This document shows, in pieces, positions 9,341 through 64,000 of a stretch of 64,000 nt of DNA. A program made the translations under genes and the position numbers. The stretch comes from Candidatus Microgenomates bacterium (lineage in GTDB: Bacteria; Patescibacteriota; JACPGU01): positions 241,211-305,210 of the forward strand of contig JACPGU010000002.1 in NCBI GenBank assembly GCA_016188915.1. Direction: 5' to 3'. Below the pieces are notes generated by a model. It worked only from the letters and a program-made list of their open reading frames with translations, had not been told where the DNA came from and searched no databases. Position 1 is the first letter of the stretch. The number at the start of each line of letters is the position of its first letter.

Positions 9341-9351
9341 TTTACTTAATT

Positions 9352-9918: not shown

Positions 9919-9923
9919 TTATT

Positions 9924-10226: not shown

Positions 10227-10236
10227 TATCTAAATT

Positions 10237-11454
10237 TTGTTAAAATCAATCAGAAAACAATTTCCCATATTGGATTCCAAAAACACTCGCGGTCAAAAAT
10301 TGGCCTATCTTGATAATGCTTCAACCACACAAAAGCCGAAAGTAGTGCTACGCGCTATTTCCGATTTTTATCAAAATTTTTGCGCCAATACACATCGTGG
10401 GGTTTACCAGCTGGCGGAAAATGCCACGCAGATTTTTGAAACTAGTCGCGAGATCGTGCAAAAATTCATCAATGCTCGCTATAGAGAAGAAATCATTTTT
10501 ACCAGCGGAACAACAGAATCTATCAATCTTTTGGCGCAAGCCTGGGGAGAAGAAAATATTAATCAAAATGATGAGATTATTCTCACGGAGATGGAACACC
10601 ATAGCAATCTAGTCCCTTGGCAGATTTTAGCGCAAAAAAAAGGCGCTCGTTTGCTTTTTATTCCCATCACTGCCGATGGGCAGCTGGACATGGCAGTTTA
10701 TGAAAAAATGCTGTCTTCAAAAACGAAATTGGTAGCACTTACCCATCTCTCCAATGTTTTGGGAACGATTAATGATATCAACTTTATCGTAAAAAAAGCA
10801 AAGAAATTCGGCGCGACCACTTTTGTTGACGCGGCGCAAAGCGTAGCCCATCTTGCACTTGACGTGCAAAAAATAAATTGTGATTTTTTGGCTTTTTCCG
10901 CGCATAAAATGTATGGACCTTTTGGACTGGGGGTACTTTATGGAAAAAGGGAGATTTTAGAAAAAATGTCACCCTACCAATATGGCGGTGAAATGATCAG
11001 AGAGGTCAATAAAGAAAAATCGTCCTGGAATAATCTGCCATACAAATTTGAAGCGGGAACACAAAATATCGCGGGAGCGGTGGGATTAGCGATGGCGATT
11101 GGCTTCCTCCGCAGGATAGGTTTTGCCAAAATCTCAAAACATGAGAGAAGTCTCTCCCATTATGCTATGAAAAAATTGAGTAAAAATAAAAATATCACAA
11201 TCTATGGGCCCTCTACTCGCGGAGCGGTAATTGCTTTTACTCACGATTTTATCCACCCGCATGATTTGTCGGCGATTTTAGATGCCAAACAAAATGTAGC
11301 TACTCGTTCTGGCCATCATTGCGCTATGCCCTTAGCCAAAAAAATAGGGGTAGAAGCCACCTGTCGTGTCAGTTTTGGTATTTATAATACCAAAGAAGAA
11401 ATAGATCGTTTGATGAAAGGGATTTTGTCGGCTGAAAAAATATTTAACAAATGA
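10237..11454 (+). CDS. sufS: cysteine desulfurase SufS (class V aminotransferase)
   Basis: The PLP-lysine region (FLAFSAHKMYGPFGLGVLYGK) and the C-terminal active-site Cys region (HHCAMPL) are present. Confidence 0.9.
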   Translation: MLKSIRKQFPILDSKNTRGQKLAYLDNASTTQKPKVVLRAISDFYQNFCANTHRGVYQLAENATQIFETSREIVQKFINARYREEIIFTSGTTESINLLAQAWGEENINQNDEIILTEMEHHSNLVPWQILAQKKGARLLFIPITADGQLDMAVYEKMLSSKTKLVALTHLSNVLGTINDINFIVKKAKKFGATTFVDAAQSVAHLALDVQKINCDFLAFSAHKMYGPFGLGVLYGKREILEKMSPYQYGGEMIREVNKEKSSWNNLPYKFEAGTQNIAGAVGLAMAIGFLRRIGFAKISKHERSLSHYAMKKLSKNKNITIYGPSTRGAVIAFTHDFIHPHDLSAILDAKQNVATRSGHHCAMPLAKKIGVEATCRVSFGIYNTKEEIDRLMKGILSAEKIFNK

Positions 11455-11460
11455 TTTTTT

Positions 11461-11823
11461 ATGGATATCTATCAGCAAAATATTTTGGACCATTATAAAA
11501 ATCCTCGCTATTTCGGAGAGATTGATGATGCTGACCATACTAAATGTTTGGAAAATCCCAGTTGCGGAGACAAAATCTGTATTGCTACAAGCTGTAAATT
11601 TTTCCGGTTTTCCGGCTCTGGTTGCGCTATATCGATGGCAACAGCTGATATTTTGCTGGAGTATGTGATAAAAAATAAATTAACTTTTCGGCAGATTTTG
11701 CGATTAAAAAAAGAAAATATTTTGGATTTGATAAAGATAGATTTACAGCCAGTGCGTCTCAAATGCGCTCTATTGCCCTTGGAGGTTTTGCAAAAAATGT
11801 TGGCCGAAATAGAGAAAAAATAA
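11461..11823 (+). CDS. sufU: SufU/IscU-like sulfur acceptor (NifU N-terminal domain family)
   Basis: The N-terminus MDIYQQNILDHYKNPRYFGEIDDADH matches the family. Three conserved Cys residues are present (NPSCGD, GSGCAIS, KCALLP). Confidence 0.8.
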   Translation: MDIYQQNILDHYKNPRYFGEIDDADHTKCLENPSCGDKICIATSCKFFRFSGSGCAISMATADILLEYVIKNKLTFRQILRLKKENILDLIKIDLQPVRLKCALLPLEVLQKMLAEIEKK

Positions 11824-21800: not shown

Positions 21801-23233
21801 CTTATTCCACCAGTACCGTGGTTTTCACCGGCAACGCATCTTTTACCATTCCGGCAACCACTTATTATAATTTAACTTTTAGTCCGACCGTGGTGACGAC
21901 CGGCAAGACCTATACTTTTGGCGGAGCAGTGGCGGTCAATAGCGCCTTGGATATCAATCCGGACGCGGCTACCAGTCTTTCTTTGACGGTCAATCTCGGT
22001 GGCGCGCTCACCGGCTCGCCGGCTGTCACCGTTAGAAGGCAAAATTCGGCGGCTTCCGTTTTGGATACTACGGCCGGCAATTATGGTATTACGGCTACCA
22101 GTTTTGACATCCAAGCAGGCGGGACAGTGACACTTAACGCTTCTACTGTTTCGGCTTCCGGCGCGGTGACCATTGCTTCATCGGGGACGTTAAATGCCAC
22201 TTCTGGCACTTTCAGTATTGGTGGCAATTACACGAATAATGGCACTTTTTCTAGCAACAACGGCACCGTTACCATCAACGGCTCTTCGCAGCAGACTTTG
22301 GCCGGAACGATGACAACGACCAACGCTTTCAAGACTCTGACAATTACCAATAGTAGTGGCGCCGATCCCGATGCTTCGCCTTCGGTAATTTTTTCGGCCG
22401 CGGCGACCGCCACCACTTTCAACGCGGTGACGGCCTCAACCAAAATTCGCTTCTTGGCGGGCGCGACCTATACTTTTACCACTTTCAATGTCAATGGCCA
22501 GGCGACCGGTACGCGCGTTCAGCTCCGTTCCTCTTCCTCGCCGACCGCTTGGTTGCTTGTCGCTAGTGGCAGTCCGGTGGTTTATAATACCAATCCCAAA
22601 GATTCCAATGCTTCCGGCGGGAGCAGCATTGATGCTTCAGCCGCATCCAATTTGGACGGTGCGGGCAATACCAATTGGAATTTTGGAGGACTTTCTACTG
22701 ATATTGTAGACAGTAATGGCGATCCAGTGGGTAGTCCAGCGGTAGCTATGGATAACGCTTCTTTAGGTTTTGCTTGCCAGTCTGCTACTGGTACCTTGGG
22801 GGCGGCTTCGCAGAAAATGCGTGTTTCCAATAGCACGGGCAATCCTTCATGGACCCTAACTATCGCGCCGACTGATGGGGCCACTACGACTTGGACGGCT
22901 GGCGCGCCCTTGTATGATTTTAACGACGCGACAGCTTCTGGCTGTTCGGATGGGATAGACGCTGATGGAGTGGGTGGACAGCTAACGATGAACGCTTCGG
23001 CAGGGACGGTGACGCCACAGGGCGGTTGTTCTTCTACGGGAATTACAAAAGGTAATTCAGCTGCTTTTGTGCAGGGCACTACTGACAGCGTCACCATTTT
23101 GTCGGCTAGCGGTCTGGCGGAAACTAGTTGTTATTGGGATTTGACAGGCGTTTCTTTGAGTCAATCAATTCCGCAAGAGCAAACTATCGGCAATTACTCT
23201 TTGAATATGACGATTACTTTGACTGCGAATTAA
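15893..23233 (+). CDS. giant (2446 aa) secreted Thr/Gly/Asn-rich tandem-repeat surface protein with a WxL-like C-terminal domain
   Basis: The protein has an N-terminal signal anchor. A beta-helix-like low-complexity region carries about four ~180-aa tandem repeats (NNPT.N.TG...CAS.C..MTFTKSSNT.TLNGTANTKTITDNNTTKQDLG). The C-terminal ~190 aa are homologous to the 238-aa protein at 11921..12637. Confidence 0.8.
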   Translation: MVKKHSPKGKKARIGDALFTLRKRGKSPWFFAVFLIVLFLIGQLTSKAYAANFYPNLCFGTADSKKAVGQIKNSASDQTPSEFAVTIDEENVTLDCAQFRDEGKSSRVRKVQEATLKIFWSTNTDSIGEGAKASFWQTKKALAADEETTTEIVSEKITEEIIAPEQIENVISGQTIGTTEPIEDTVSDQDAQINKATIAISYTLDNAIWQDLANVGINNLATEFPLNLKDSSDIANFHLRVTSIGDFGQNLVLLDGFAISAVFQNDFSDEEIEALPRVDIGEELFVAPKKDFRADEAVEFEIKGFQDAGTSQNPTASLSEARSISIANLKSPAHLVAQGVVGRQISNLQYIFPAHAEEITAGAVQVLTAEVYDPIGNTGTITPLVQEIGGTTKIIVNKPTRGFRPGRYRLHLEVLDLASSQILISDQNFTWGVLAINLNKSVYLPFESAYLQMGVLDDQGSTICNANLKLEITDPLGGFTILTTASGSISLSDQCDKNNVTDTPDYFAYYTTGDLGVYQMTLTNLTNLYSVTDTFEVRNYAPMTIERISATRINPFKANYRMIFELRANEAFSGAFSETLPDNFEVIDPTINNDTAYDLLITSGDKKIISWNLSLNRNQRKTITYTYDSPDVSPQLYLAGPASAGTIFTETRNWQIASDAACSSNGTGNWSNGATWSGCTGTGGVPAADDTITITDGHAVTLDTTATVAGLTLCDSACNADTSLTHSGSNALTVNGTVTINGGAGAGDNTLWTINGGSATVSGAISYNPQSTTGGRDAKIALSTGTLNANGGIVFENTAGSEDNQMLAMTSTATVNLKGSISNQTLADIQPGTTSTFVYIDSAAAQTVVFDATSSTYAKLTFSNTHASGVTLGAALTATNTTGDVNVLHGIFVTGGYNMTGTGSNTLTMSNGSQFDQTGATLISSFAGLSTSATSTYRLLTTNATFSMATLIYGNVVVSPQANNVAVTPSSGTLSMQGYLTLGGVGAYTGITLNIDTSDPTFNVDGDTTIGANHTLILSATGTATFGGSWTNAGTLTHSSGTVTFDATDTGNTINNNSSSFYNLKLNGSGGEWSALTNTLTIANDLTVSAGTLNNSAGTADITVNGNVACNGTCGTVNLTSGTFLQSVTTNKAFGTNVAVGTNWIFNNLTFTGTSDTITTSSTGTGTIEVKTNLTISTATTLDAGNRTFILSAASTTPATFTGTLTGNTSIFRYTGAGNTTIPASTGYSTVQLYPGANSAIFTLDSGTFTLSGDFIAGGNSSYTGTTVTLGANNPTMNITGDFTVCASSCPEMTFTKSSNTITLNGTANTKTITDNNTTKQDLGKIAIGNASAAKIVNMGSTLKLETLNITANATFSFNNGAYTLTITGTGTPLTKTGTFTATTGTTTYVGNGATTITAATYNNLQIFPGGASVTHTLASGTFTIGGDLDIGGNANGASTVVTAGANNPTIGLTGNLVVCASTCSNQMTFTKSSNTLTLNGTANTKTITDNNTTKQDLGALAIGNGATAKHIGLGSNIKATSVNITASAFFEPGAYTATLTANGTPFTVSGTFTPATSTIEYAPASTTGVTVASTTYHHVIFNKTSNTFSLTTSGITTDTANGGGDLTISAGTLDTVSGSNYPISIGGSWTNSDTFTANSGTVTFTSVNTGETLSGTLSGASSFNNIIFNGSGGEWTPGSAVNLNGDLTMTAGTLLGTQNITVAGGDVTGDGAITLTGGTFKVTGASGTGFGGATAWSFSSLTFGDGADSATTTATGSGGITVSSVLTIDATHTLDAAGKIWTLSGTTDPFVKTGTFTPNTSTFKFTGNGATNIPATTYYNLQVFPGGAVTHTLGAGTFTINNNLDLGGNTNPASTVITAATNSPTVNITGNLTLCATTCSNQMTFTKGGTITLSGAANTKSLTDNNTTKQDLGDITIGNASLAKIIQLGSSIKATSINITTNATLDANGTNTITLTGTTTPFTTNGAFTYSTSTVVFTGNASFTIPATTYYNLTFSPTVVTTGKTYTFGGAVAVNSALDINPDAATSLSLTVNLGGALTGSPAVTVRRQNSAASVLDTTAGNYGITATSFDIQAGGTVTLNASTVSASGAVTIASSGTLNATSGTFSIGGNYTNNGTFSSNNGTVTINGSSQQTLAGTMTTTNAFKTLTITNSSGADPDASPSVIFSAAATATTFNAVTASTKIRFLAGATYTFTTFNVNGQATGTRVQLRSSSSPTAWLLVASGSPVVYNTNPKDSNASGGSSIDASAASNLDGAGNTNWNFGGLSTDIVDSNGDPVGSPAVAMDNASLGFACQSATGTLGAASQKMRVSNSTGNPSWTLTIAPTDGATTTWTAGAPLYDFNDATASGCSDGIDADGVGGQLTMNASAGTVTPQGGCSSTGITKGNSAAFVQGTTDSVTILSASGLAETSCYWDLTGVSLSQSIPQEQTIGNYSLNMTITLTAN
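19690..21700 (+). repeat. in-frame tandem coding repeats (~540-bp period, about four copies) inside the giant gene
   Basis: A recurring DNA block containing accaagcaagacct occurs at ~19850, ~20390 and ~21625. The protein-level repeats are listed above. Confidence 0.7.
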
Positions 23234-23461: not shown

Positions 23462-26400
23462 ATGAAATGGATAAAAAACAAAAAAAGCTATCTTTCCCCC
23501 CTTTCTTTTTTCAAAGAAAAAAGCAATCAAATTTATTCTTTTTTGATTGTTGTTTTAGTTTTACAGATAGCTGTTCTTGCTATTTTGGTGCCATTAGTGC
23601 GGGGAGTAAATTCTACTACTCACACCAGCCAAGAAGATTTTGCGGCAGGCGCTATCTCTCAAACAGCAGTGACTAATAGCTCTGGCGGTGAGATTTCTTT
23701 GGCTACTGTTTCTTCCAGTTTTGCCCAACAATCTTTCGGCACTAACTCTCTCGGCGAAGTAGGAGTCAAGGTCAATGATTTATACGCCGCCTATAGCCCC
23801 AGTCTAGTCCACGATTCCTTAGGCAATACCTACGTTGCCTACTTTTTCGCCGGTTCAACTTGGGATATTGTAGTCAAAAAATATGATTCTGCCGGAGCGC
23901 AAGATTTGACTTTTGGCACAGCTGGCACTTTGACTATTTCATCTTCTGCTGTTGCCGGCGGGATTATGCCCAATACACCATCTTTGGTAGTGGACAATAC
24001 CAACAGTAATCTCTATGTCGCCTGGGATGCCGGAGCGCCTCTCGCCAGCGCTAAAACTATTTATGCCAAAAAGTTTTCTTTTGCTGGTGTTATTGACACG
24101 AGTTTTGGCACGAGCGGGCTTTTGACTGCCGGTAGTAATAACAAATCTATCAGCACGGATCATAGTTTTTCTATTAGTATTGATACCAATAGCAAACTCT
24201 ACATTGCCACGAATGGTACGAGCGGGACGAGCCTCACAGTCAAAAGATACACTACGGCCGGAGCCCTGGATGCTAGCTACGCGACATCCGGAACATTAAC
24301 AGCCGTTTCTACCGGCAACGCGGTCGGTGACCCATATATGGTAGTTAATGGTGGCGACAATCTTTATCTCCTTTACTACGAAAATATTTCCGGTCCGCAC
24401 AAAATCTACGCCAGGAAATTCAATTCTTCGGGAGTAACGGTGACCAGCTTTGGCGCCAGTGGAATCTTGGAGATCGCTTCTTCCACGCAGGCATTGCGAG
24501 ATCCCGTGGTAGTTTTCGGTGGTTCAGAGAACGGCTATGTCGTTTGGACGGAAGCGGCCAACAATGATATTTACGCCAAGAAATTTTCCACGGCCGGAGT
24601 TTTAGACACGAGTTTTGGCACGAGTGGTATGGCAACAATAACTACAGCTAGTAATATTCAGAGGAAACCGGCGCTGGCCCTAGATTCCAGTGAAAATATG
24701 TATATCGCCTGGGAAGATAATCGCGGAGCGGATTACAGCATTTATACTAAAAAATTCAATTCCTCTGGCACGTTGGTTTCCGGCTTTGGAACGGCGGGAG
24801 AATTAGCCACTTTCGATAATAGCAACAATCAATTTTATCCGGCGATTATGACTGATGCCACCGGTGATATTTATCTTGCTGCTTCTGATGATCGCTCTAC
24901 CGGCAATACCAAATATGATTTGTATATAAGAAAATTCAATTCCTCCGGTACGCGATATAACGATTATTCACCGGCCACAGCAGATGATGTGGCGATCAGC
25001 GGTGAATCTTCTAGCCAAGAACATCCTGCTTCCGCTACCGATTCTGACAACAATGTTTATTTCGTTTGGCGCAATATGGCAACGGACGCCAACGGCGATA
25101 TTTATATGAAAAAATACAGCGCCATGGGCTTTCTCTACGACGGTACATCCGCTTCTCCGGAATTTGGCACCGACGGGCAGGTCTTGATTTCCTCTGCCGG
25201 GACGAACGCTGCCCAGCGCGCGCCACGGATAACGCTAGATAGCACTGATAATATTTATGTCTCTTGGTATGACAATCGTGATGGGGCAAATTACGACGCT
25301 TACGTGAAAAAATTTAGCAGTAGTGGCGCGCTAGACGCAACTTTTGGCTCATCAGGAGAGTTAACGGTGGAGGCAGGGATTTTAATCGGCGCGGGCGAAT
25401 CCGATGAACTACCGACAGAAATGGGGCTGGGGGTGGATTCCTCTGACAATATCTATGTTGCTTATTACAAAGATTTGGCTCTGGATGGCGCTGATTACGC
25501 GGTCTATATCAGGAAATACTCTTCGGCCGGCGTTATCGTTTCGGCCTTTGGCAGTTCCGGCACTTTGACGGTAGCAAGTAGCAGCCTAGCCGATACCTTT
25601 CCCACGCTGACTATTTCTTCCGCTAATAATCTTTATGTCGGTTATGTGGAATGGGAGCTGGACTTCTCTGACTCTAAAGTGAAGATTAAAAAATATAATT
25701 CTTCCGGGACGATAGATAGCGCTTTTGGTACGAGCGGGACCATCACTTACGATAATGTTGGCGATATTGATCGCGAGGCGAGGCTGGCTTTGGATTCTAC
25801 CGGAGCCGTTTATCTGGCTTCGGGCAATGTAGATGATCTCATCGCGCCTACTGCCTACCAAATATTCCTGACCAAATATGATTCAGCTGGCGTTATCGTT
25901 ACGAGCTTTGGTACCGGTGGCACGATCACTTTGGCGACTTCAGCCAATGCGACCATCTATCCTTCTATCGCCACAGATTCGGCAGACAATATCTATGCTA
26001 CTTGGACGCAAACGGTAGCCGATAATGATATCAAGCTTCGCGTTTACAATACTGCCGGAACGCTCAATACTAATGTTGGCACTAACGGAGTTTTGGTTTT
26101 GGACTCTACAACGGCCAATGCCAATCAGGTAGCTATAACCGTTGGAGCAGGAGACGCTATCTATTTTGCTTGGTCGGACGGGGCGATATCTGGCGCCAAA
26201 TATGATTTCACTGGCGGTTCGACTGTCTATTATACTTCTGGTACTTTTGAATCGGCCACGATTGATACTGGCTCTAGCACGCAAGTTTACGGCAATTTGT
26301 CTTGGTCGGTAACGACGCCAGTCGGCACATCGGTTTTGTTCCAGGTGGCTACGGCCACCACTGATAGCGGCTATGTCTATCGCGGACCGGGTGGATTTTT

Positions 26401-27748
26401 GGACACCTACTACACCACTTCCTCTGGTCATAATATTTGGTCAGGGGCGGACAGCCAGAGATATTTCCGCTACAAAATGATTTTGGCCACGACCGATGCT
26501 ACGGCCAGTCCTAGTGTAGCCAGTGTTACTATCGCTTATAACCTGCCACCAAACGCCCCTTCTTCTTTAGGGCCGATGGCTTCTATCGACGGAACGGCTT
26601 CTTCTAACACCAGACCTAACTTCTCTTTTACCTTGACCGACAATGATACATCCGACACGGTTGGCTATCGTATTCAAATTAGCCAAGTGAGCGACTTTTC
26701 TTCCAGTATCGTTGACTATACTTCGGCTATGGCCACTCAGGGGACAGCTTCTTTTTCAGTTGGACAGGCTACAGGTAGTGGTAGCTATACGACGGGGTGG
26801 CTTAATCAGACTTTGTCTGAAGGAAATTATTATTGGCGCGTCGCTGCTATTGACGAAAACAATCTTATCGGTAATTGGACGACAGCCAATTCAGGCAATG
26901 TTGCTTTGACAATTTCTTTGCCACCATCCTATACGGCACCTATCGAATCAACCGGCGGAGGTGGCGGGGTAGAACCCAAGGCCGCCACGCCAGAGAAAAA
27001 GGCCACAGAGACCTTTACCGATAATTTTTCCATAAATATTAATGACGATCAGATCAATACAACTAATCTGGAAGTTACTTTGCGTTTTAGTGCTCCTTCT
27101 TCTGCTACGGAAGTGGAGATTTCTAATTATCCTGACTTCAAAGAATCTACTCGCGATCAATTCGCTAGAGAGAAAAAATGGTCTATCTGTGCCGACAAAG
27201 ATACAGGCGCGGTCGGAAAAGCCAACATCAAAACCCACAATTGTTCAGAGGGCGAGTACAGCGTCTATGCTAGATTTTATAATGCCAAAGGAGAAATGTC
27301 GGCAGTTTTCAGAGACACCATCTCTTATCGTCTGAATACGAAAGATATAACTGAGGGGGCAAATCAAGCTATCCCAGAGAAAGGTGGCACGCCACAAAAT
27401 ATTAGTGAGACAATTAGCCCCAACGATAATACTGGTAGTCAAACAGAGATTTTGCCGGCGCTGGTTTTTGTTCCCGACATCATCTTTTTCAACAATATGC
27501 GAGTGGGTTCCAATGGGGTGGAAGTCAAGGCTTTGCAGGAATTTTTGAATAAAAACGGTTTTACGGTAGCTGATAATGGTCCTGGTTCTTCCGGCGGTGA
27601 AACGCAGTATTACGGCGCGTTGACTGCCCGGGCAGTGGCTAGATTTCAAGAAGCCAATGCTGATCAGATTTTGACTCCCTTGGGCTACACCAAGGGTACG
27701 GGTATCTTTGGTCCCGCGACGAGAAATTATATTAATTCACTGAAATGA
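23462..27748 (+). CDS. giant (1428 aa) secreted protein with ~15 delta-60-like repeats, Ig/FN3-like modules and a C-terminal peptidoglycan-binding (PG_binding_1-like) domain
   Basis: Repeated units of ~45-60 aa (IYAKKF.S.G.LDTSFGTSG.LT...) follow a signal anchor. The C-terminus VGSNGVEVKALQEFLNKNGF...YYGALTARAVARFQEAN resembles a PG-binding domain. Confidence 0.8.
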   Translation: MKWIKNKKSYLSPLSFFKEKSNQIYSFLIVVLVLQIAVLAILVPLVRGVNSTTHTSQEDFAAGAISQTAVTNSSGGEISLATVSSSFAQQSFGTNSLGEVGVKVNDLYAAYSPSLVHDSLGNTYVAYFFAGSTWDIVVKKYDSAGAQDLTFGTAGTLTISSSAVAGGIMPNTPSLVVDNTNSNLYVAWDAGAPLASAKTIYAKKFSFAGVIDTSFGTSGLLTAGSNNKSISTDHSFSISIDTNSKLYIATNGTSGTSLTVKRYTTAGALDASYATSGTLTAVSTGNAVGDPYMVVNGGDNLYLLYYENISGPHKIYARKFNSSGVTVTSFGASGILEIASSTQALRDPVVVFGGSENGYVVWTEAANNDIYAKKFSTAGVLDTSFGTSGMATITTASNIQRKPALALDSSENMYIAWEDNRGADYSIYTKKFNSSGTLVSGFGTAGELATFDNSNNQFYPAIMTDATGDIYLAASDDRSTGNTKYDLYIRKFNSSGTRYNDYSPATADDVAISGESSSQEHPASATDSDNNVYFVWRNMATDANGDIYMKKYSAMGFLYDGTSASPEFGTDGQVLISSAGTNAAQRAPRITLDSTDNIYVSWYDNRDGANYDAYVKKFSSSGALDATFGSSGELTVEAGILIGAGESDELPTEMGLGVDSSDNIYVAYYKDLALDGADYAVYIRKYSSAGVIVSAFGSSGTLTVASSSLADTFPTLTISSANNLYVGYVEWELDFSDSKVKIKKYNSSGTIDSAFGTSGTITYDNVGDIDREARLALDSTGAVYLASGNVDDLIAPTAYQIFLTKYDSAGVIVTSFGTGGTITLATSANATIYPSIATDSADNIYATWTQTVADNDIKLRVYNTAGTLNTNVGTNGVLVLDSTTANANQVAITVGAGDAIYFAWSDGAISGAKYDFTGGSTVYYTSGTFESATIDTGSSTQVYGNLSWSVTTPVGTSVLFQVATATTDSGYVYRGPGGFLDTYYTTSSGHNIWSGADSQRYFRYKMILATTDATASPSVASVTIAYNLPPNAPSSLGPMASIDGTASSNTRPNFSFTLTDNDTSDTVGYRIQISQVSDFSSSIVDYTSAMATQGTASFSVGQATGSGSYTTGWLNQTLSEGNYYWRVAAIDENNLIGNWTTANSGNVALTISLPPSYTAPIESTGGGGGVEPKAATPEKKATETFTDNFSININDDQINTTNLEVTLRFSAPSSATEVEISNYPDFKESTRDQFAREKKWSICADKDTGAVGKANIKTHNCSEGEYSVYARFYNAKGEMSAVFRDTISYRLNTKDITEGANQAIPEKGGTPQNISETISPNDNTGSQTEILPALVFVPDIIFFNNMRVGSNGVEVKALQEFLNKNGFTVADNGPGSSGGETQYYGALTARAVARFQEANADQILTPLGYTKGTGIFGPATRNYINSLK

Positions 27749-56479: not shown

Positions 56480-56702
56480 TTAGCTTAGGCTAAACTCAAA
56501 ATTTTGTTCAAAAATTTTATCTAAAAAATCTCTAATTTTATATCTAAATATTGTTTATCAGAGGTTACTTAACAATGATAGACCCAAAGAGCATAACACG
56601 GATAGAATTTCTTTTGTAGCCCCTTTCTCTTTACTTAAATCGCAGATGTCGTACAATACTCCTATCCATACTTCATGCCTCATAATTCATGCTTCATCAC
56701 CT

Positions 56703-57668
56703 ATGAACCTCAACGATCTCATTCGCCAATTCTTGGAACATCTGGAAGTTGAACGTGGCAAAAGCCTCAAAACGATAGAAAACTATCAGCACTATTTGAA
56801 TCGTTTTTTGATTTTTGCCGAAGGTTTGGGCGTGAAAGAGCCGACACAGATAGATCAAGATGTCATTCGTCAATACCGTCTCTACTTGAACCGTCTGACC
56901 AATCAAAAAGGCGAAATGCTCAGAAAAGTGACGCAAAATTATCATTCCATCGCCTTGCGCGCTTTTTTGAAATATCTGGCCAAAAGAGATATCAAATCTT
57001 TGTCGGCGGAAAAAGTGGAATTAGCCAAACAAGAAGACCGAGAAGTGAGCTTCTTGGATGCCCAAGAATTGGAAAGGCTGATGGCATCTCCCGCGATGTA
57101 TGAAAAAAATGTGACCAAAAGAATGCGTGATGAAGCGATTCTTCATACTTTGTTTTCCACCGGTCTGCGTGTCTCGGAGCTTTGCTCGCTTAATCGTGAG
57201 CAAGTGGATTTAGAGCGAGGCGAATTTTCCGTTCGAGGCAAGGGGAGCAAAATCCGCGTCGTTTTTTTGTCAAATGAGGCCAAAGAATTTTTGCGAAAAT
57301 ATTTGGAGAGAAGAAAAGACAATCATAAGGCTGTTTTTGTTCCGGTCTTGCATAAAGTGCGCGGAGCGGGTAATTCCCCGACGTCCGACGTCGGGGAGAA
57401 AATCGGGCGCGAGATGCGCCTGACTTCTCGTTCGGTGGAGAGACTAATCGCTCATTACGCTAAATTGGCCGGCATTATCAAAAAAGTTTCACCGCATACC
57501 TTAAGGCATTGCTTCGCGACCGATTTACTGATGAACGGCGCCGATATTCGTAGTGTGCAGTCTATGCTCGGCCATTCTTCTATTACCACCACGCAAATTT
57601 ATACTCATGTGACCAATCAACAATTGCGCGATGTCCATCGCGCTTTCCACGGGAAGACAAAAAAATAA
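56703..57668 (+). CDS. xerD: tyrosine site-specific recombinase XerD/XerC-like
   Basis: The N-terminal SAM-like domain (LIRQFLEHLEVERGKSLKTIENY) and the C-terminal catalytic motifs HTLRHCFATDLL...LGHSSITTTQIYTHV are present. The protein carries a ~40-aa insertion. Confidence 0.8.
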   Translation: MNLNDLIRQFLEHLEVERGKSLKTIENYQHYLNRFLIFAEGLGVKEPTQIDQDVIRQYRLYLNRLTNQKGEMLRKVTQNYHSIALRAFLKYLAKRDIKSLSAEKVELAKQEDREVSFLDAQELERLMASPAMYEKNVTKRMRDEAILHTLFSTGLRVSELCSLNREQVDLERGEFSVRGKGSKIRVVFLSNEAKEFLRKYLERRKDNHKAVFVPVLHKVRGAGNSPTSDVGEKIGREMRLTSRSVERLIAHYAKLAGIIKKVSPHTLRHCFATDLLMNGADIRSVQSMLGHSSITTTQIYTHVTNQQLRDVHRAFHGKTKK

Positions 57669-57711: not shown

Positions 57712-58746
57712 TTAGGGAGATGGAGGCATAGTGTAATCGCTTGTTTCGTCTGTCGGAGGGGGCTGGTCGGGGTCTAGCTCTTTGAGCCTTCGTCCGCATT
57801 GGCCGCAGAAGATGTCATCTTCGGCGGCTTCTTTTTGACACATCGGACACTTTCGGACATCGGGATTTTGCGTGGAGCCCATTTTTTCCGAAGCCTTTTC
57901 CTCGCCCATTGAGCCTTCCTCCTTGCGTTCTTTCTTCTGACGGCATTTTGGGCAGAAATCATAGCCTTTGGGAATCGGGGCGTTACATTGGGGACAGTAA
58001 GGTGACGAAATGGCCGTGCCGAGTTCTTTTTTCTGTGACCTTTCGTCACTAATGAGCTCAGCGCCACAGCCACCGCAGAAGATTCCGTCTCCTATGACGC
58101 ACAGTTCGGCGGTAGTGTAGGTGCCAGGAGTTTTCATCTCCACTTCTTTCTCCATATCTTCCATATCTTCGCGCGCCAGTTTCAAGAGAGCATCCCAAGA
58201 CCCCGTTTCTTCTGCAATAATGAAGAGATTAAGGGGGTCATAGCCTGGCTTTTGGGCATTGCCGGGCTCATTCAGCCAGTCAATTAGCTGATTCGTCTGG
58301 TAGAAAAGAGTGTTGGCCATCGTCATTACTTCACTGGATGTTTGCTCTTGGGCGAGTAAATTCCTCAGCAGTTTATGGAGGTATTGCAGGGCGTCGACGC
58401 TGGATACAATCAAGTTCATATCTTCGATCCGAGCCACTCTCTTAGTCAAAAAGGCAGGGTCGTCGTATCGATGAGATGGAACTTGAAATTTTGCAATAGG
58501 CGCGATGACCCCTTGCTTGGTATTGTTGACGACGACAGGTTTTATCTGCCTTTTTCTCGCCTCTCGCGATGGCCGTGGTCGGAAAATGAGGTAAATCAGA
58601 CCGTAGGCAGTCAGAACGATCGCCAATAGCAGAACGAGCGAGCAGATGTCAGTCGGCAGGCTCACACCGAGAGAGCTGGACAACCGATTGATGAAGGGGG
58701 TTGTGATTTCCTCCCACAAGTCGAAAAAGCTGAAAATAGTCTCCAT
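57712..58746 (-). CDS. hypothetical membrane protein with C-terminal tandem zinc-ribbon domains
   Basis: An N-terminal TM is followed by a cytoplasmic region and three CxxC...CxxC ribbons (FCGGCG..CPQCN; CPKCR; CPMCQ..CGQCG). Confidence 0.5.
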   Translation of the reverse strand: METIFSFFDLWEEITTPFINRLSSSLGVSLPTDICSLVLLLAIVLTAYGLIYLIFRPRPSREARKRQIKPVVVNNTKQGVIAPIAKFQVPSHRYDDPAFLTKRVARIEDMNLIVSSVDALQYLHKLLRNLLAQEQTSSEVMTMANTLFYQTNQLIDWLNEPGNAQKPGYDPLNLFIIAEETGSWDALLKLAREDMEDMEKEVEMKTPGTYTTAELCVIGDGIFCGGCGAELISDERSQKKELGTAISSPYCPQCNAPIPKGYDFCPKCRQKKERKEEGSMGEEKASEKMGSTQNPDVRKCPMCQKEAAEDDIFCGQCGRRLKELDPDQPPPTDETSDYTMPPSP

Positions 58747-58910
58747 GGCGGAGCGCCTCCTTGATTTTGGTTTTGTGATTTTTTAAACATCAAAAAATCT
58801 TTCCTTATTATAGCCTATTTCGCTTTATAAAGTCAATATTTTTCTGGCAATGTCCGACTTTGCCAGACTTTTTGGCTATCGGTATTCTTGTTTTTGTGCT
58901 AAAATACTTC

Positions 58911-58938
58911 ATAACTCATAACTCATAACTCATAGCTC
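58911..58938. repeat. heptamer tandem repeat (ATAACTC)x3 + ATAGCTC
   Basis: The repeat is seen directly in the intergenic region upstream of 57712..58746. Confidence 0.6.
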
Positions 58939-59083
58939 ATGCTTAGCATCGGCAATTTCACTATTCTGATTTTCCCCTAGTAATGCCTTTTGAAATTAAA
59001 TTAAATATGCCTAAGCCACGCAAAAAAAGAATCATCCTACAAAGGGATGAAAATGGGCGGATTTTGCACTCTAAAGTGGCCGA

Positions 59084-59275
59084 TTAATTAGATTTTTCAT
59101 TGTTGTCGGTGAGGACTTGTTCTTTTTCTTTATTCTCTAGATATATTTTATATAAAATCTCATAATATTGGGTTATTTGTTCTGCATATAGCCCCGCTTC
59201 CTCATCTGTTAGCTCTTTTCCAGCCTCCTCTTTTACTATTCGTTTGAATTCTTGTATTAATTTTTCTGATAACAT
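59084..59275 (-). CDS. small acidic helical protein (hypothetical)
   Basis: The 63-aa ORF may be the last gene of the minus-strand operon. Confidence 0.3.
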   Translation of the reverse strand: MLSEKLIQEFKRIVKEEAGKELTDEEAGLYAEQITQYYEILYKIYLENKEKEQVLTDNNEKSN

Positions 59276-59476
59276 ATCTTTGTTCTAAATGATAATTGTT
59301 TTAAGCTCCTAAATTACCGAACAAATACCGAATATTTACTGAATAAGAAGATAAAAAACTACCCCTATATAAAAGCTCCTATTCAAAAATGGCGTTGGGG
59401 GGGGTCTTTCCTTTATGGGTGGTAAGCCGAGTGGGAATCCTGCTTCCTCAAAGCGAAGGCTAACTTAAAGTATTTC

Positions 59477-59932
59477 TTAAACTTTTTTGTTCTTTGCTAG
59501 ATTATGGCCGTATTTAACAGCATTTAGGATTAATAGTTGGATTTCTTTTACAAAAAACTTTGGGTAACTTACTAAATCCTCTTCTGATTCATTTGGATAG
59601 CTTTTTGAATCTTCTTCAAATTCTCCTGAACAATTTCTTAGATCCTTTTCTAATTCACACAGATAAATATTATTAGCCTTTTCTTTAATTTCCTCCTCAC
59701 TTATTAACTGACCATCTTCAATACCATATTTGACGGCTTCCCTAATGCGATCGTAGTGCCAGAAGGGGATATTGACGATATCTCTTATTTCTTTCCATCT
59801 TTCTTTGGTTATATGCACATTACCTATAGACTCATCAACATACTTTCTTAGAAGACTATCTAAAGCATCATAGGGATTAGTTTCAAAATCAAATGTTTCT
59901 TGGTTTTTCATAGGTTTATATTTAAAAGACAA
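59477..59932 (-). CDS. hypothetical acidic cytoplasmic protein
   Basis: The 151-aa protein has no recognisable family. It overlaps the upstream CPBP gene by 11 nt, suggesting translational coupling. Confidence 0.45.
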   Translation of the reverse strand: MSFKYKPMKNQETFDFETNPYDALDSLLRKYVDESIGNVHITKERWKEIRDIVNIPFWHYDRIREAVKYGIEDGQLISEEEIKEKANNIYLCELEKDLRNCSGEFEEDSKSYPNESEEDLVSYPKFFVKEIQLLILNAVKYGHNLAKNKKV

Positions 59933-60701
59933 AGATAATATTACTTAATATATTATTTCCTATATGCCCCAATATAGCATATTTAAACCCATACCTCATC
60001 CGCAAAAATCCCAATATTAAACCCCCTGTTGCTTGGGGGAGAATAAAGAAAGGAATCAAAAACCAAAAGTTGCTAAAGTTGGAAAAGTTAGACAAATGAT
60101 CTAGCCCAAACAATATTGCCGAGATATAGAAAATATACCCAAATCTTTTTTGGTAGAAGCTCCTGATTTTTTGTTCGTTTAGGAATCTCTTCATTGTCTT
60201 TGCCAGCAGAAAACCCAGTACTAAGACTATAGTAATCATAATAGGAGCTATAATCCAGTCATAAGGGTCAGAAAACACTGTAATGAGCCAGCCCCAGCCA
60301 ATATCCACACTAGCTATCCAAGTTCGTAATTCCTCAAAAAATGCGATACAGAGGAATATAAGGGCAAATGCGAGGTTGTAAAAAGAGAATCTCAGCCCAA
60401 GCCTAAATGTAAGCTCCTCCATGACAGGAGCTCCTATCAAAACGACTAGAATATAATAGATCGGTCTATAATCAGCCTCTCCTCCCACAAAGTTTCCGAC
60501 ATCATAATCAAATAATCTAAATAGGTGGTAATTAAGATATACCAATATGCTATTAATTGCCAATCCTATTATTATTAGAATGAGAATATTAAGAAGGTCA
60601 ACCGCCGTTTTCTTTTTGTTTGAATCAATGGAATAATCGGGTTTCCGTAAAAACTTCAGAAAAGATAAAACTATGTTTTCCTGATCTATTTTATTTTCCA
60701 T
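59922..60701 (-). CDS. CPBP family intramembrane glutamic endopeptidase (CAAX protease / Abi bacteriocin-immunity family)
   Basis: Multiple TM helices carry motif 1 EExxxR (GAPVMEELTFRLGLRF) and a His motif (FGLDHL). Confidence 0.75.
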   Translation of the reverse strand: MENKIDQENIVLSFLKFLRKPDYSIDSNKKKTAVDLLNILILIIIGLAINSILVYLNYHLFRLFDYDVGNFVGGEADYRPIYYILVVLIGAPVMEELTFRLGLRFSFYNLAFALIFLCIAFFEELRTWIASVDIGWGWLITVFSDPYDWIIAPIMITIVLVLGFLLAKTMKRFLNEQKIRSFYQKRFGYIFYISAILFGLDHLSNFSNFSNFWFLIPFFILPQATGGLILGFLRMRYGFKYAILGHIGNNILSNIIFVF

Positions 60702-61194
60702 TTTTGTTTGTTGGTATTTTGGTCTCTTTTATTAGCTTTGGTGGTCTAATGCTCGTGTCATAAACTGATATTTTGTCGTCTGATATTATCGTGGTCATCT
60801 TTGAATCATGATAATTAAAAAGCTCCTTTAGTTGTTTGCTTCGTGCCTTTTTAAAGAAGTGGAGATAGTTGGTTTTAAAATTTGATCTTTGTTGGCTACT
60901 GAATTGTTGTATATTCAATTGCTCTTCAAAAAGAACATCCAAGCTCTTTTTTGAATCATCCTCGCATGCTTTAACAAAGACAGGGAGTAAAGAGTGGCAA
61001 CAATGGCCTGAACAGCCAAAATCTATTATTTGATTAGCGAATATATTTATTATCCAGATCAGAAAATCAATAGGAGCTTCAAATCCCATTTTGGCCAATA
61101 ATTCCTCGGCTTTGATTGGTGAAGCTCCTCGTACATGAAAACCGCCCTTGTCAGCATATCCGCTTAAATTGTCTAAGCGTTGTTGGTTGGTCAT
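60691..61194 (-). CDS. hypothetical cytoplasmic protein with a degenerate GCSGHCC motif
   Basis: The 167-aa protein contains IIDFGCSGHCCHSLLP, which weakly recalls a SAM-binding GxGxG motif. It overlaps the CPBP gene by 11 nt. Confidence 0.4.
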   Translation of the reverse strand: MTNQQRLDNLSGYADKGGFHVRGASPIKAEELLAKMGFEAPIDFLIWIINIFANQIIDFGCSGHCCHSLLPVFVKACEDDSKKSLDVLFEEQLNIQQFSSQQRSNFKTNYLHFFKKARSKQLKELFNYHDSKMTTIISDDKISVYDTSIRPPKLIKETKIPTNKNGK

Positions 61195-61199
61195 AATAT

Positions 61200-61439
61200 T
61201 TATTGATTAATCGCATAAATAACGGAGAATATTGTAAAAGCTATAAATAATAGACCTCCCAATATTGCTAAAATTCTGGAAAGTATGGGGCTACTACTTG
61301 TAGAGGGTCTTAGTGGATCCCCAACAGTAAAGCTCTTAGATAGCTCTTCATTGGAATAAAATATGCCACTAAATAAAGCTCCTAACCCAATTCCCAGTGA
61401 CACTATTGCTACTAATACTATCCCAATAATTTTCATCAT
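61200..61439 (-). CDS. small two-TM membrane protein (79 aa), first gene of the operon
   Basis: Two hydrophobic helices are separated by a Ser/Pro-rich loop. The gene lies 6 nt upstream of the next gene. Confidence 0.45.
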   Translation of the reverse strand: MMKIIGIVLVAIVSLGIGLGALFSGIFYSNEELSKSFTVGDPLRPSTSSSPILSRILAILGGLLFIAFTIFSVIYAINQ

Positions 61440-61459
61440 ATTTTTAAATTATTGATAAA

Positions 61460-61600
61460 ACAAAAGGACAACCTTGCAGGTTGTCACACCCAATTAGACA
61501 GGTTGTGCCTAATTGTTTTACAAAGTTGCCCTATTCTTGGTACAACCTTGCATTATCCTCACGGATAAAAAGCATAATAAATCTAATTGGGTGTGACAGA
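61460..61600. promoter_or_regulatory. promoter/operator region with nested inverted repeats
   Basis: A 15-bp perfect IR (GTCACACCCAATTAG at 61483-61497, CTAATTGGGTGTGAC at 61584-61598) has its arms 86 bp apart. The palindrome ACAACCTTGCAGGTTGT is at 61469-61485. A second copy of ACAACCTTGCA is at 61543-61553. Confidence 0.45.
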
Positions 61601-61623
61601 TTCATTATAGCACGACATAAAAA

Positions 61624-61650
61624 ATAGCGTAATATAGATTATCACGCTAT
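61624..61650 (-). terminator. terminator (ATAGCGTgataatctatattACGCTAT + T-run on the minus strand) after the GmrSD-like gene
   Basis: The hairpin is followed by TTTTTTATG on the minus strand. Confidence 0.6.
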
Positions 61651-61682
61651 TTTATGTTATTTCTCCAAGTTGTTTATCTCCC

Positions 61683-63389
61683 CTAAAACTCTAAATTCCA
61701 AACCTTATCTATAGAATATTTGGATAATTCTTGTGCTCTTTCCTTTATACTGTCTTCATTCCACGCGTCTCGTTGCAGATATTTTGAAAATATTTCTATA
61801 CCTTGAGCATACTCAACTAGCCCATGATTTTGGCCACTACCAGCTTTTTTGGTTTTCCAATCAGAATCTCTTATGGATGAATTGAGTTGTTTTGTTATTA
61901 AAGTTAAATTGCCTAATGTTAATATTAGATCGTCACGGTCATTTTCCTGCTCGTTTGTTAAATTATCGTCTTTCCAGTTATTCCGCCATTTTTTTGGCAT
62001 CACATGCTCTAGGCTATATTCGTCAAAATACTTAAGTTCCGTAGAGTTTAGATTGCTCCTAATAGATCTTTCAATTAAGTAAAGAATTCCTTTGGCTTGT
62101 TTGTTGCTTAGATCAGATTGTTTGATACCTTCTTCAACATCTTGATCGGAAGGCATATAATTAATTTTCTCCCCCTTCATTTCAATAAGCTCCTTCAATT
62201 TTTCTAGCGTGTTTATCTCGTTATTTATGAAGCTCCTAAATAATTGGTTATAATTTTTTGTCGTTTTCTTACAGATTAATCTTCGCATTAAATAAGCCTC
62301 AAGATATCTAAAAATTTTGTTCCTTTCATCTTGATTGGTAACCTTTTTTGCTACATACAGGATATACGGGATAATCGTCGCCGTATCCAACCCAAACATA
62401 ACCAAATTCAATCTTTGGACATAATCATTTTTGTTTACATCCTGTTCTACGATCTTTGGATTAACTGTGTTTTTATAAACAGAAGCATACTCTTTTAATT
62501 CACTTACCACTAAATCTTTAACTAAGCCATACTTAGCAATAAATTCTTTATACGAATTGAATACAGAATCAACCTTAAAATAACGCTCCTTATCATCAGA
62601 GGTAACATTAAGATCCTTCTCTTGAATTTTTATAAATAAATATGATTGCAAAAATAGATCTATATTATTTCTGATGCTTCGGCCTGAAGTAACTTCTTGA
62701 TCCCAATATTCCTTAATCTCGTCATCTTTTTCAAAAACATCTCGCCAGTTTTTGTTGTAAAATTCTATATCGTCTCGGAATAAGTAATTTTTTAGCAATT
62801 CAGCAGTTGTCAATCTAACACCAAGAGAGTTTATGGTATCAAAAATCTGTTGCTCATCTTCATTGAAAAGAAGATCAATGCCGACAAATAAAACATTAGA
62901 TAATAGATTGTTTGGATTTATTTCATTTGCCTCAATATTTTTTAGAAAATAGTCGTAACACCTGCTTATTTGGCTCTTCTTCTCTTTTGCATCAAGTTCT
63001 TGGTCTGTCAGTATTTTTTCAAAAATAGGTTTATCTGAGTAATTATGCTCTAAAATTATATTATTATTAAACATTGTAAAGATTTCCTGAAACTTTTCAG
63101 GTGTTTCATTTTTATTAAACAATGCCTTAAAAAACAACATAACCGTTGTTAATCTTTGTTGGCCATCAATAATTGTTCTAACATTATTTTCATTTACCTG
63201 CGTCTCCTGTTGTTTTAATATAACCGATCCCATGAAGTAGGGGCAGTTGGCACGAGAGGCATACCTCATGTCATCTAAAAATCTCTCCCATTGTTCTTCT
63301 TGCCAAACATAAGATCTTTGAAAATGAGGTATTTTCAATTTATTGGCTCTATTAAATATGTCAGATATATTTCTTTTTCCAGCTTCCAT
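61683..63389 (-). CDS. GmrSD-family (DUF262 + DUF1524) type IV modification-dependent restriction endonuclease candidate
   Basis: The N-terminal DUF262/ParB-like motifs are KIPHFQRSYVW and IIDGQQRLTT. The C-terminal DUF1524 His-Me finger is EHVMPKKW...N...NLTLI..LN. Confidence 0.8.
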   Translation of the reverse strand: MEAGKRNISDIFNRANKLKIPHFQRSYVWQEEQWERFLDDMRYASRANCPYFMGSVILKQQETQVNENNVRTIIDGQQRLTTVMLFFKALFNKNETPEKFQEIFTMFNNNIILEHNYSDKPIFEKILTDQELDAKEKKSQISRCYDYFLKNIEANEINPNNLLSNVLFVGIDLLFNEDEQQIFDTINSLGVRLTTAELLKNYLFRDDIEFYNKNWRDVFEKDDEIKEYWDQEVTSGRSIRNNIDLFLQSYLFIKIQEKDLNVTSDDKERYFKVDSVFNSYKEFIAKYGLVKDLVVSELKEYASVYKNTVNPKIVEQDVNKNDYVQRLNLVMFGLDTATIIPYILYVAKKVTNQDERNKIFRYLEAYLMRRLICKKTTKNYNQLFRSFINNEINTLEKLKELIEMKGEKINYMPSDQDVEEGIKQSDLSNKQAKGILYLIERSIRSNLNSTELKYFDEYSLEHVMPKKWRNNWKDDNLTNEQENDRDDLILTLGNLTLITKQLNSSIRDSDWKTKKAGSGQNHGLVEYAQGIEIFSKYLQRDAWNEDSIKERAQELSKYSIDKVWNLEF

Positions 63390-63421
63390 ATAATTTATTT
63401 TTATTAATAGGTTTTATTATA

Positions 63422-64000
63422 CTACAAATCAGATAGCCTTTTCCATATCTCTACCATTGCTAGAGTATCTAACTCGCAATATTTGAGCATGTCTTGATAT
63501 AAGTGTTCTCGTTCTTCCTTGTCCACCTTCTCGTCTGTTAGTGTGAACCATGAAACTGAAGCTGTGCCACCCTCTTGGATATTAAGCTCCTTATATGACA
63601 GGTGAGGTACCATTACTGGTAATACTTTCTTGAGTGAGGCGGAAGCCTTAAAGCCCTTGTCTGCTACATATCCATTCTTAAATATCATCATCAAATCAAA
63701 CATTCTTTCATTCATACCCTCAAAGAATTCTTTATATTCAGGGTTTCTGCTGGCAATACCTGTATTACAACTCTTTTCAAAAGACATATTCCACGATATA
63801 AAAGTTCCTTTTTCTCCGACGATATTATTCAGCGATTCATAAAGATCTTTGGTCGGGTCTTTGTATTCTTTTTCTAAAAACTCATAATGCTTTGCTTCTG
63901 CGTTTGGAGCTTCTATGACATGTAAAGAGTATTGAAACGGGATATTCTCGTAAGGCCTAAGCCCATCAAATAGAGGTACGGCTCCTCCAAATGTCTCATA
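63422..64000 (-). CDS. hypothetical protein, 5'-truncated by the window edge, with a DEDDy 3'-5' exonuclease-like C-terminal motif
   Basis: The reading frame is open from the window edge to the stop at 63422. The C-terminus ...HLYQDMLKYCELDTLAMVEIWKRL resembles exonuclease motif III (Y-x3-D), as in RNase D/DnaQ-like domains. Confidence 0.45.
   Translation of the reverse strand, partial: YETFGGAVPLFDGLRPYENIPFQYSLHVIEAPNAEAKHYEFLEKEYKDPTKDLYESLNNIVGEKGTFISWNMSFEKSCNTGIASRNPEYKEFFEGMNERMFDLMMIFKNGYVADKGFKASASLKKVLPVMVPHLSYKELNIQEGGTASVSWFTLTDEKVDKEEREHLYQDMLKYCELDTLAMVEIWKRLSDL

Follow-up and report, generated by a model that had tools for sequence, protein, structure and literature searches.

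Eco94GmrSD, EcoCT GmrSD and BrxU are type IV restriction enzymes for DNA containing 5-hydroxymethylcytosine (hmC), glucosylated hmC (glc-hmC) and 5-methylcytosine (5mC) (PMC4437046, PMC8565348), and HEC-06 is a GmrSD-like stand-alone defence that is embedded in Hma systems (bioRxiv 10.1101/2024.01.29.577857). Most GmrSD enzymes that have been characterised cut phage DNA with chemical modifications. Around GmrSD genes the strongest enrichment is that of type I domains (PMC4619093). Here we describe a gmrSD-like gene, together with an adjoining gene of the DUF2779 family, at the end of a 64,000-nucleotide stretch (the window) of contig JACPGU010000002.1 from Candidatus Microgenomates bacterium. 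In our view the locus quite probably forms the distal part of a defence island that was acquired horizontally, spans 17 kb or more and is low in guanine plus cytosine (GC), with an intact and autonomous GmrSD enzyme that is most likely of type IV.

The GmrSD-family protein and the island that carries it

The gene and its two domains are positioned in the window as follows.

61683..63389, minus strand: gmrSD-like gene, an open reading frame (ORF) of 568 amino acids (aa) encoding a single chain of DUF262, helical linker and DUF1524
62778..63368, minus strand: DUF262 / GmrSD_N domain, a ParB-Srx-like nucleoside triphosphatase (NTPase), residues 8-204, Pfam PF03235
61719..62153, minus strand: DUF1524 / GmrSD_C His-Me-finger nuclease domain, residues 413-557, Pfam PF07510

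The initial annotation had recognised a 568-aa protein joining a DUF262 domain, with its DGQQR motif, to DUF1524, and this is borne out by the Pfam matches to PF03235 (E 2.7e-35, 122.7 bits against a cut-off of 33.2, with profile positions 1-199 of 199 covered) and to PF07510 (E 7.5e-19, 68.4 bits against a cut-off of 23). Judged by profile comparison, these two matches and that of the adjoining DUF2779 protein to its own family are strong, span whole domains, and are far past chance. The DUF262 domain contains F23-Q-R25 and D75-G-Q-Q-R79 (63153-63167), and the nuclease domain contains E461-H462 (62004-62009), N494 (61908-61910) and N503 (61881-61883). Loss of catalytic residues was looked for and none was found; across 43 aligned homologues (51-93% identity) none of these positions varies. 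In HEC-06 the Q and R of DGQQR and residues E471/H472 are needed for defence (bioRxiv 10.1101/2024.01.29.577857), and in DndI the equivalents of the Q and R are needed for ATPase activity (PMC11662687). The AlphaFold (AF2) model of the protein has a pLDDT (predicted local distance difference test) of 87.8, and every Foldseek match in the PDB with E < 0.01 is to DndI, SspE or BrxU, which are DUF262-DUF1524 proteins. The residues needed according to mutagenesis of HEC-06, DndI and BrxU are all present, and the gene is intact. On these comparisons the 568-aa protein is an intact and ordinary member of the GmrSD family, with DUF262 above its gathering score, the DGQQR motif, a DUF1524 (D/E)-H...N...N signature and a family-like overall fold.

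With over 5000 relatives in the databases, the family is very large. No exact match to the window protein was found, but a variant that differs by one residue (P0001) was. Members of the same subfamily are 75-82% identical in other Patescibacteria, 65% identical in a metagenome-assembled genome of Aenigmatarchaeota (L005), and approximately 50% identical in Bacteroidota, Methylophaga and Nitrospinales (L007-L017); the presence of the subfamily in a DPANN archaeon as well as in Bacteroidota and these other lineages thus points to wide horizontal spread between domains. Some relatives have additional C-terminal domains (DUF4357, PF14088, PF18899). The relatives found on plasmids are at most 28% identical and their gene context is uninformative.

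Through P0001 we reached a Logan contig of 19.3 kb (L047/L051) that extends beyond the edge of the window. Over 5048 bp it shares 99.96% identity with window 58953-64000, and it ends at window position 58953. With the sequence beyond position 64000 the neighbour of gmrSD, which the initial annotation had seen only in part, is completed as a 491-aa DUF2779 protein. In GenBank the two proteins are MBI2448431.1 (DUF2779) and MBI2448430.1 ('DUF262 domain-containing protein'), both from Candidatus Microgenomates bacterium, Patescibacteria group, so that the initial attribution to the candidate phyla radiation (CPR) is right. In gene-strand order the genes are hsdM (512 aa), a 221-aa ORF, hsdS (423 aa), a 150-aa ORF, sduA (370 aa), hsdR (1025 aa), DUF2779 (491 aa) and gmrSD (568 aa); the whole array is co-directional, with only its last 1.4 genes inside the window, and gaps of 22 bp separate hsdR from DUF2779 and 32 bp DUF2779 from gmrSD. 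A type I restriction-modification (R-M) system is complete in L051, with PADLOC matches to MTase_I (2.7e-237), Specificity_I (1.7e-94) and REase_I (E 0) that agree with Pfam. Three further genes lie within it.

L051 3393-4058: small ORF, 221 aa, between hsdM and hsdS, with an N-terminal hydrophobic stretch judged by eye to be a membrane segment
L051 5328-5780: small ORF, 150 aa, between hsdS and sduA, with an N-terminal hydrophobic stretch likewise judged by eye to be a membrane segment
L051 5782-6894: Shedu SduA-like nuclease gene, between hsdS and hsdR, with SduA_C/DUF4263

The SduA-like protein matches PF14082 with 45.2 bits against a cut-off of 27, and 15 PADLOC SduA models, the best at 6.3e-16, as a domain-level match. 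The two small ORFs have Pfam matches only below gathering scores and none in PADLOC or NCBIfam, and are candidates for embedded defence or regulatory genes. The order hsdM-hsdS-sduA-hsdR is also seen in an unrelated IMG/VR contig (L144), where it likewise adjoins a DUF2779 gene.

In the final 4 kb of the window the GC content is 0.33-0.35, and across L051 it is 0.31-0.43, as compared to 0.39-0.53 in the rest of the window. The low-GC block runs from about window position 58000 to 64000 and on through L051 1-15996, at 0.31-0.39 save for one bin of 0.43 in L051. From the low GC and the array of defence genes we take the window to finish in the terminal part of a defence island of low GC that spans at least 17 kb. 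The block exceeds the recognised defence genes, and also includes small membrane proteins and the following two genes.

59922-60701: CPBP/Rce1-like intramembrane protease
57712-58746: zinc-ribbon-rich protein, 344 aa

The immediate neighbours of gmrSD are hsdR and DUF2779 on one side, and the genes for small membrane proteins and the CPBP protease on the other; no Dnd, Ssp or BREX genes adjoin it. A look for partner genes thus yields type I R-M and Shedu, and not the Dnd, Ssp or BREX loci that had been named as candidates. The BREX genes pglZ, brxC and pglX are not among the L051 genes and, among the window matches listed (25 of 56 PADLOC families), there is only a generic helicase match to BrxHI, and the sole SspA/DndA-like match in the remaining 61 kb is SufS. 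The latter match was considered as a PT (phosphorothioate) system and rejected, as this gene adjoins SufB in a SUF operon. The initial assignment to a GmrSD/BrxU family therefore holds for GmrSD, on everything that could be compared, while the BrxU subtype is rejected on context because there is no BREX locus.

One alternative is that the DUF262/DUF1524 protein is a PT-sensing effector of the DndI or SspE type, a nickase restrained by host PT marks whose Dnd or Ssp genes are encoded elsewhere, and which attacks unmodified DNA. Several comparisons suggest this branch rather than the classical type IV enzymes, and count against our preferred assignment. First, DndI (9jfl) is the top Foldseek match (E 4.9e-15, though with a TM score of 0.55 and only 16% identity) and SspE follows (E 5.9e-11), both ahead of BrxU, which is ranked fifth (E 1.4e-7, TM 0.33). 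Secondly, a PDB search with the sequence returns only DndI, another DUF262 protein and SspE. Thirdly, the best PADLOC model is Orf5, matched over its full length at 1.7e-63, and its accession numbers fall between the DndA and PbeA blocks, so that it is probably Dnd-associated; a check of the literature did not confirm that Orf5 is DndI, and the link comes from the numbering. There are also weaker matches to SspE models. However, the SspE and PDB sequence matches are confined to the common N-terminal DUF262 domain, and HEC-06, a validated stand-alone defence, matches the protein over an equally full length (9.6e-49 and 3.2e-45), with mREase_IV at 1e-31. Moreover, the known DndI and SspE genes sit beside modification operons (PMC11662687), whereas the flanks of gmrSD are as described above. 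As the flanks contain no dnd, ssp or BREX genes, we favour a type IV mode and regard PT sensing as unlikely; it is nonetheless kept alive by the fact that DndI is the best match in structure and that the Orf5 models are probably of Dnd origin.

The DUF2779 neighbour and its association with DUF262 genes

Only the 3′ part of the DUF2779 gene and a subset of its putative catalytic residues are in the window.

63422..64000, minus strand: DUF2779 gene, 3′ part (residues 300-491 of 491), with the frame open to the window edge over 192 codons
63995-63997, minus strand: E301 of the DEDDy set
63776-63778, minus strand: E374
63695-63697, minus strand: D401
63467-63481, minus strand: Y473-x3-D477

The Cas4-like N-terminal half and D299, the first Asp of the exonuclease domain, are beyond the window end. 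Against DUF2779 (PF11074, cut-off 23.3) the window fragment scores 118.4 bits (E 3e-34) and the full protein 126 bits (E 1.4e-36), and the fragment has weak Pfam matches to RNase_H_2 (0.0022) and, in its final 33 residues, to DNA_pol_A_exo1 (0.031). The N-terminal half matches Pfam Cas_Cas4 above its cut-off and PADLOC Cas4 at 1.9e-12, and in Foldseek it matches Cas4 and MGME1; the AlphaFold model of the full protein has a pLDDT of 94.1, and a PDB search with the sequence gave no match. In 58 homologues C13, D99, E114, K116, C208, C214 and C220 are invariant in the Cas4-like half, giving a PD-(D/E)XK site with D...E-x-K and four Fe-S cysteines, and D299, E301, E374, D401, Y473 and D477 (DEDD plus Tyr) in the other half, which combines an Exo I D-x-E, an Exo II acidic residue and an Exo III Y-x3-D with an RNase-H-like fold. 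The initial annotation had noted that the neighbour ends in an exonuclease-III-like Y-x3-D; the motif, Y-C-E-L-D, is real, but it is the 'Exo III motif' of DEDD-type 3′-5′ exonucleases and not a likeness to Xth. From its conserved residues and domain matches the 491-aa protein is a fusion of a Cas4-like PD-(D/E)XK nuclease, with four cysteines and a predicted 4Fe-4S cluster, to a predicted DEDDy 3′-5′ exonuclease. This agrees with a survey of the RNase-H-like superfamily, in which DUF2779 is placed in a 3′-5′ exonuclease clade (F.17) and is fused to DUF83 (PMC3985635), and with MMSYN1_0389 of JCVI-syn3.0, which is quasi-essential and was described in 2026 as a Cas4 and DEDD(y) fusion of unknown function (PMC13621843).

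The pairing with gmrSD was surveyed from both sides. DUF2779 was sought by tblastn and hidden Markov model searches in 46 genome loci containing GmrSD relatives of 40-82% identity, and is present in one, 5.5 kb away and on the opposite strand; type I genes are near the relatives in ten. Viewed from the GmrSD side the pairing is therefore not conserved, and on this result the adjacency had been taken as incidental, a view overturned by the reciprocal survey, which covered another 91 non-redundant loci with DUF2779. When the 147 ORFs immediately beside DUF2779 are scanned with Pfam, GmrSD_N is the commonest family with 10 members, followed by ResIII with 5, N6_Mtase, Eco57I and GmrSD_C with 3 each, and McrBC, HSDR_N, EcoR124_C, RhuM and NYN with 2 each; among 148 control ORFs at least six genes away in the same loci GmrSD_N is found at most once (Fisher p 0.005), while DNA-methylase domains are equally frequent in both sets. 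Iterative searching gave 15 DUF262 ORFs in the DUF2779 loci, 11 of which are immediate neighbours as compared to an expectation of 15% (binomial p 8e-7). DUF262 thus adjoins DUF2779 directly in 11 of the 91 loci and is absent from that slot in the other 80. The gaps are from -1 to 110 bp (the pair in L092 overlaps by 1 bp), and 10 of the 11 pairs are co-directional. DUF262 is upstream of DUF2779 in eight loci and downstream in four. The partners are of DUF262+DUF1524, DUF262+HNH, DUF262+HEPN and DUF262+DUF4357 architectures and fall into at least seven groups with mutual identities of 26% or less, and the paired DUF2779 genes span 9 of 42 sequence clusters; in one partner group the identity of the partner tracks that of DUF2779, from 90/91% down to 49-53/57-58%. 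DUF2779 also occurs at the end of type I or III R-M operons (L058, where it is 76% identical to the window's protein, and L080, L094, L099, L102, L117 and L135), and the triple combination of type I, DUF262 and DUF2779 recurs in L062, L115, L136 and L140. DUF2779 therefore shows a preference for positions next to DUF262 genes and at R-M operon ends, and the recurrence is statistical. The initial interpretation, that such pairings suggest a composite anti-phage locus, is partly supported.

Two divergent DUF2779 paralogues about 17 kb apart (L141 and L150) are present on a 55-kb viral-labelled IMG/VR contig, IMGVR_UViG_3300032737_000190, and the L150 copy is followed by a DUF262-DUF1524 gene.

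The closeness of the two genes here, 32 bp apart and co-directional, and the very short or overlapping gaps of the recurrent pairs could be taken to indicate that both genes are obligate components of one restriction system, with the exonuclease as a necessary subunit. We consider this very improbable, and it is largely refuted by distribution: 45 of the 46 GmrSD-relative loci have no DUF2779, 80 of the 91 DUF2779 loci have no adjoining DUF262 gene, and both the gene order and the effector domains of the partners vary. Furthermore, the single-gene Eco94GmrSD, BrxU and HEC-06 are active alone (PMC4437046, PMC8565348, bioRxiv 10.1101/2024.01.29.577857), and a promoter-like consensus match precedes gmrSD.

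A stronger competitor is that DUF2779 is a general nuclease for DNA-end processing or repair with no role in defence, and that its adjacency to gmrSD results from a cassette hotspot or from chance in the R-M-rich CPR genomes. A number of observations point this way and weigh against a link to restriction. First, the MMSYN1_0389 member is quasi-essential in a minimal cell (PMC13621843), which suggests general DNA maintenance, and other copies are found among housekeeping genes, including those for sugar metabolism (L055) and ribosomal genes (L054). Secondly, one CPR copy directly follows Ku and LigD in an array of Ku, LigD, a 369-aa ORF and DUF2779 (L053 3369-9500), which is a hint that it may process the ends of double-strand breaks. 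Thirdly, R-M methylase domains are no commoner beside DUF2779 than at least six genes off, so that whole neighbourhoods are R-M-rich; matches to R-M or defence seeds adjoin DUF2779 in only 12%, as compared to 5.5% for the remaining ORFs in these loci (odds ratio 2.4, p 0.019), and about 60% of the DUF2779 loci with long flanks have no R-M seed match within 10 kb. Finally, DUF2779 is convergent with the R-M operon in L102, L135 and L144, and L049 and L050 have common downstream core genes with differing upstream defence content.

Against this, the gene is located here between two defence genes and has the island-like GC of 0.33-0.35, DUF262 genes are concentrated in the adjoining slot with short gaps and a common direction, and the co-varying identities of one lineage are as given above. 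A homologue search with the 192-aa window fragment returned fragments and short ORFs only, including disrupted or frameshifted copies, and DUF2779 pseudogenes are present in three CPR contigs, one split by a helix-turn-helix + DDE_3 insertion sequence (L048 6012-8597) and two frameshifted (L049 6698-7878 and L050 2245-3690), and each copy borders a variable region that contains R-M, ThsB-TIR or PycTM genes. Since DUF2779 is disrupted in these three genomes it is dispensable there. DUF2779 is not represented among the PADLOC models, and that it is missing from lists of known defence genes is therefore uninformative. Taken together, a defence-linked and a purely housekeeping role for DUF2779 have roughly even odds. 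The stricter form of the latter, with no defence role at all and adjacency by hotspot or chance, is a real possibility that we would nevertheless bet against, and a specific partnership with DUF262 enzymes we regard as doubtful. We advance with similar caution the proposal that DUF2779 is an unrecognised component of defence islands, in CPR bacteria for example, acting as an end-resection partner of DUF262-family nickases (GmrSD, DndI and HEPN-fused) and of type I and III enzymes.

A working model can be drawn for the locus. The DUF262 domain, through DGQQR, would bind and hydrolyse NTP, and would license the C-terminal DUF1524 His-Me finger to nick or cleave DNA. We infer this control of the nuclease by analogy with characterised relatives, and likewise infer the modification target, the antiphage activity and the coupling of DUF2779 to restriction. 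As a most likely type IV, modification-dependent enzyme, GmrSD would complement the adjoining type I R-M system, which attacks DNA without the host methylation mark, by attacking escaping phage DNA that carries modified bases. DUF2779, an optional component of the island and not an obligate GmrSD subunit, would most plausibly resect the nicks and ends made by restriction from both polarities, in the post-restriction role that RecBCD has in E. coli. On the more cautious proposal given above, it would make a nick or single cut in phage DNA lead to degradation that is irreversible, possibly feeding nucleotides to cells unable to make them, and the window would hold one case of a recurrent 'restriction + dual exonuclease' module.

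The gmrSD gene adds little by itself, being a member of a large mobile family in its usual setting beside type I R-M. The locus as a whole is a compact layered defence in a CPR genome of about 1 Mb, in which a type I R-M system with a Shedu gene inside it is joined by a type IV-like enzyme and a further nuclease. Counted per genome, defence systems are fewer in CPR bacteria, but their density per Mb is higher; R-M is the principal defence known there, and islands with type I R-M have been reported (PMC12259885, PMC12455944). The layered locus agrees with these reports of genomes that are dense, not poor, in defence genes, and they contradict the premise that restriction is sparse in minimal CPR genomes; the initial interpretation was largely right, but its reason for interest is wrong. 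We found no publication that ties DUF2779 to DUF262 or R-M loci, and DUF2779 is not in the supplementary lists of Machnicka et al. Its linkage to DUF262 is the sole new, and modestly novel, element: it raises the testable hypothesis that DUF2779 processes restriction-generated DNA ends, and nominates this widespread and uncharacterised Cas4-DEDDy fusion as a candidate accessory defence gene family.

The island junction and the rest of the window

The regulatory elements around gmrSD, and the other features at and beyond the island junction, are as follows.

63390..63421, minus strand: intergenic gap of 32 bp, from the DUF2779 stop to the gmrSD start
63445 to 63416, minus strand: sigma-70-like -35/-10 pair TGGAAA-18-TATAAT, 10/12 matches in a consensus scan, a putative promoter overlapping the gap
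61621..61653, minus strand: terminator-like hairpin with 14-bp arms, a 5-nt loop and a T-run, from inverted repeat and RNA fold
61455-61600, minus strand: 117-nt hairpin with perfect 17-nt arms (61482-61498 and 61582-61598) and internal sub-hairpins
56646-57668, plus strand: Xer-like tyrosine recombinase, matching XerC/XerD models over its full length and below their equivalog cut-offs
7169-11823, plus strand: SUF iron-sulfur assembly operon, with SufB (7916-9340) and SufS (10237-11454) confirmed against PDB sequences
7169-7912 and 11461-11823, plus strand: ORFs of the SUF operon of SufC-like and SufU-like size, respectively, a match of size only

The terminator-like hairpin is 30 bp past the gmrSD stop and closes the co-directional array from hsdM to gmrSD. 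The 117-nt hairpin is flanked by it and by a second terminator-like hairpin at 61467-61485, and has a TATAAT about 10 nt upstream. Its predicted RNA fold gives z = -5.9 to -7.0. It matches no Rfam family, a second copy is absent from both the window and the loci that were fetched, and three IMG/VR matches to one of its 17-nt arms are at chance level. It could be a small RNA, a remnant resembling a miniature inverted-repeat transposable element, or a recombination site at the island junction.

Housekeeping genes, including FtsH, an ABC transporter, MurJ, LepA, NDK and an M16 peptidase, extend to about 56.5 kb, and the Xer-like recombinase is located exactly where these stop and the low-GC block starts; it could be either a chromosomal Xer or the integrase of the island. 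Two very large ORFs of 2446 and 1428 aa (15893-23233 and 23462-27748, plus strand) occupy the part of the window with the highest GC (0.47-0.53).

Comparison with known systems

HEC-06 (Payne et al., bioRxiv 10.1101/2024.01.29.577857) is similar in having a single chain of DUF262, linker and DUF1524 of approximately 560-570 aa, and in being in or beside another restriction-type system on the same strand. The PADLOC alignment at 3.2e-45 joins GmrSD residues 5-567 to positions 9-561 of 562, with Q78/R79 here corresponding to Q79/R80 there, and E461/H462 to E471/H472, although a match of this kind reflects similarity at the family level. The settings differ, as gmrSD follows a type I R-M operon whereas HEC-06 is embedded in Hma.

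DndI (9JFL) and SspE (6JIV/7DRS) are the best structural matches, and have the same domain order and DGQQR NTPase motif (PMC11662687). They differ in that identities are 14-17%, sequence similarity is detectable in the DUF262 domain only, and the window gene has no dnd or ssp modification genes adjoining it or in the 61 kb examined, which sets its context apart from theirs. Eco94GmrSD, EcoCT GmrSD and BrxU (7P9K) have the same GmrSD_N and GmrSD_C Pfam architecture. BrxU also offers a parallel in the logic of pairing with a system directed against unmodified DNA, as BREX and BrxU are paired on pEFER (PMC8565348), but it is a lower-ranked structural match and its BREX context is not found here.

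The DUF2779 protein is in the same Pfam family, PF11074, as MMSYN1_0389 and has the same two-domain fusion, with D...E-x-K and DEDD plus Tyr conserved. The CPR protein is shorter (491 aa) and has all four Cas4 cysteines (C13, C208, C214 and C220), whereas the mycoplasma protein keeps two, and its gene sits in a defence island; the function of either protein is a prediction. Finally, RloF of Campylobacter jejuni is a DUF262 protein whose gene similarly lies within or next to an hsd operon (Machnicka et al. 2015, PMC4619093), although gmrSD here is after hsdR with DUF2779 between them, and not between hsdS and hsdR, a slot that is held here by the Shedu gene. A GmrSD gene beside type I R-M is a textbook pattern, and extra defence genes inside the hsd operon are a published theme.

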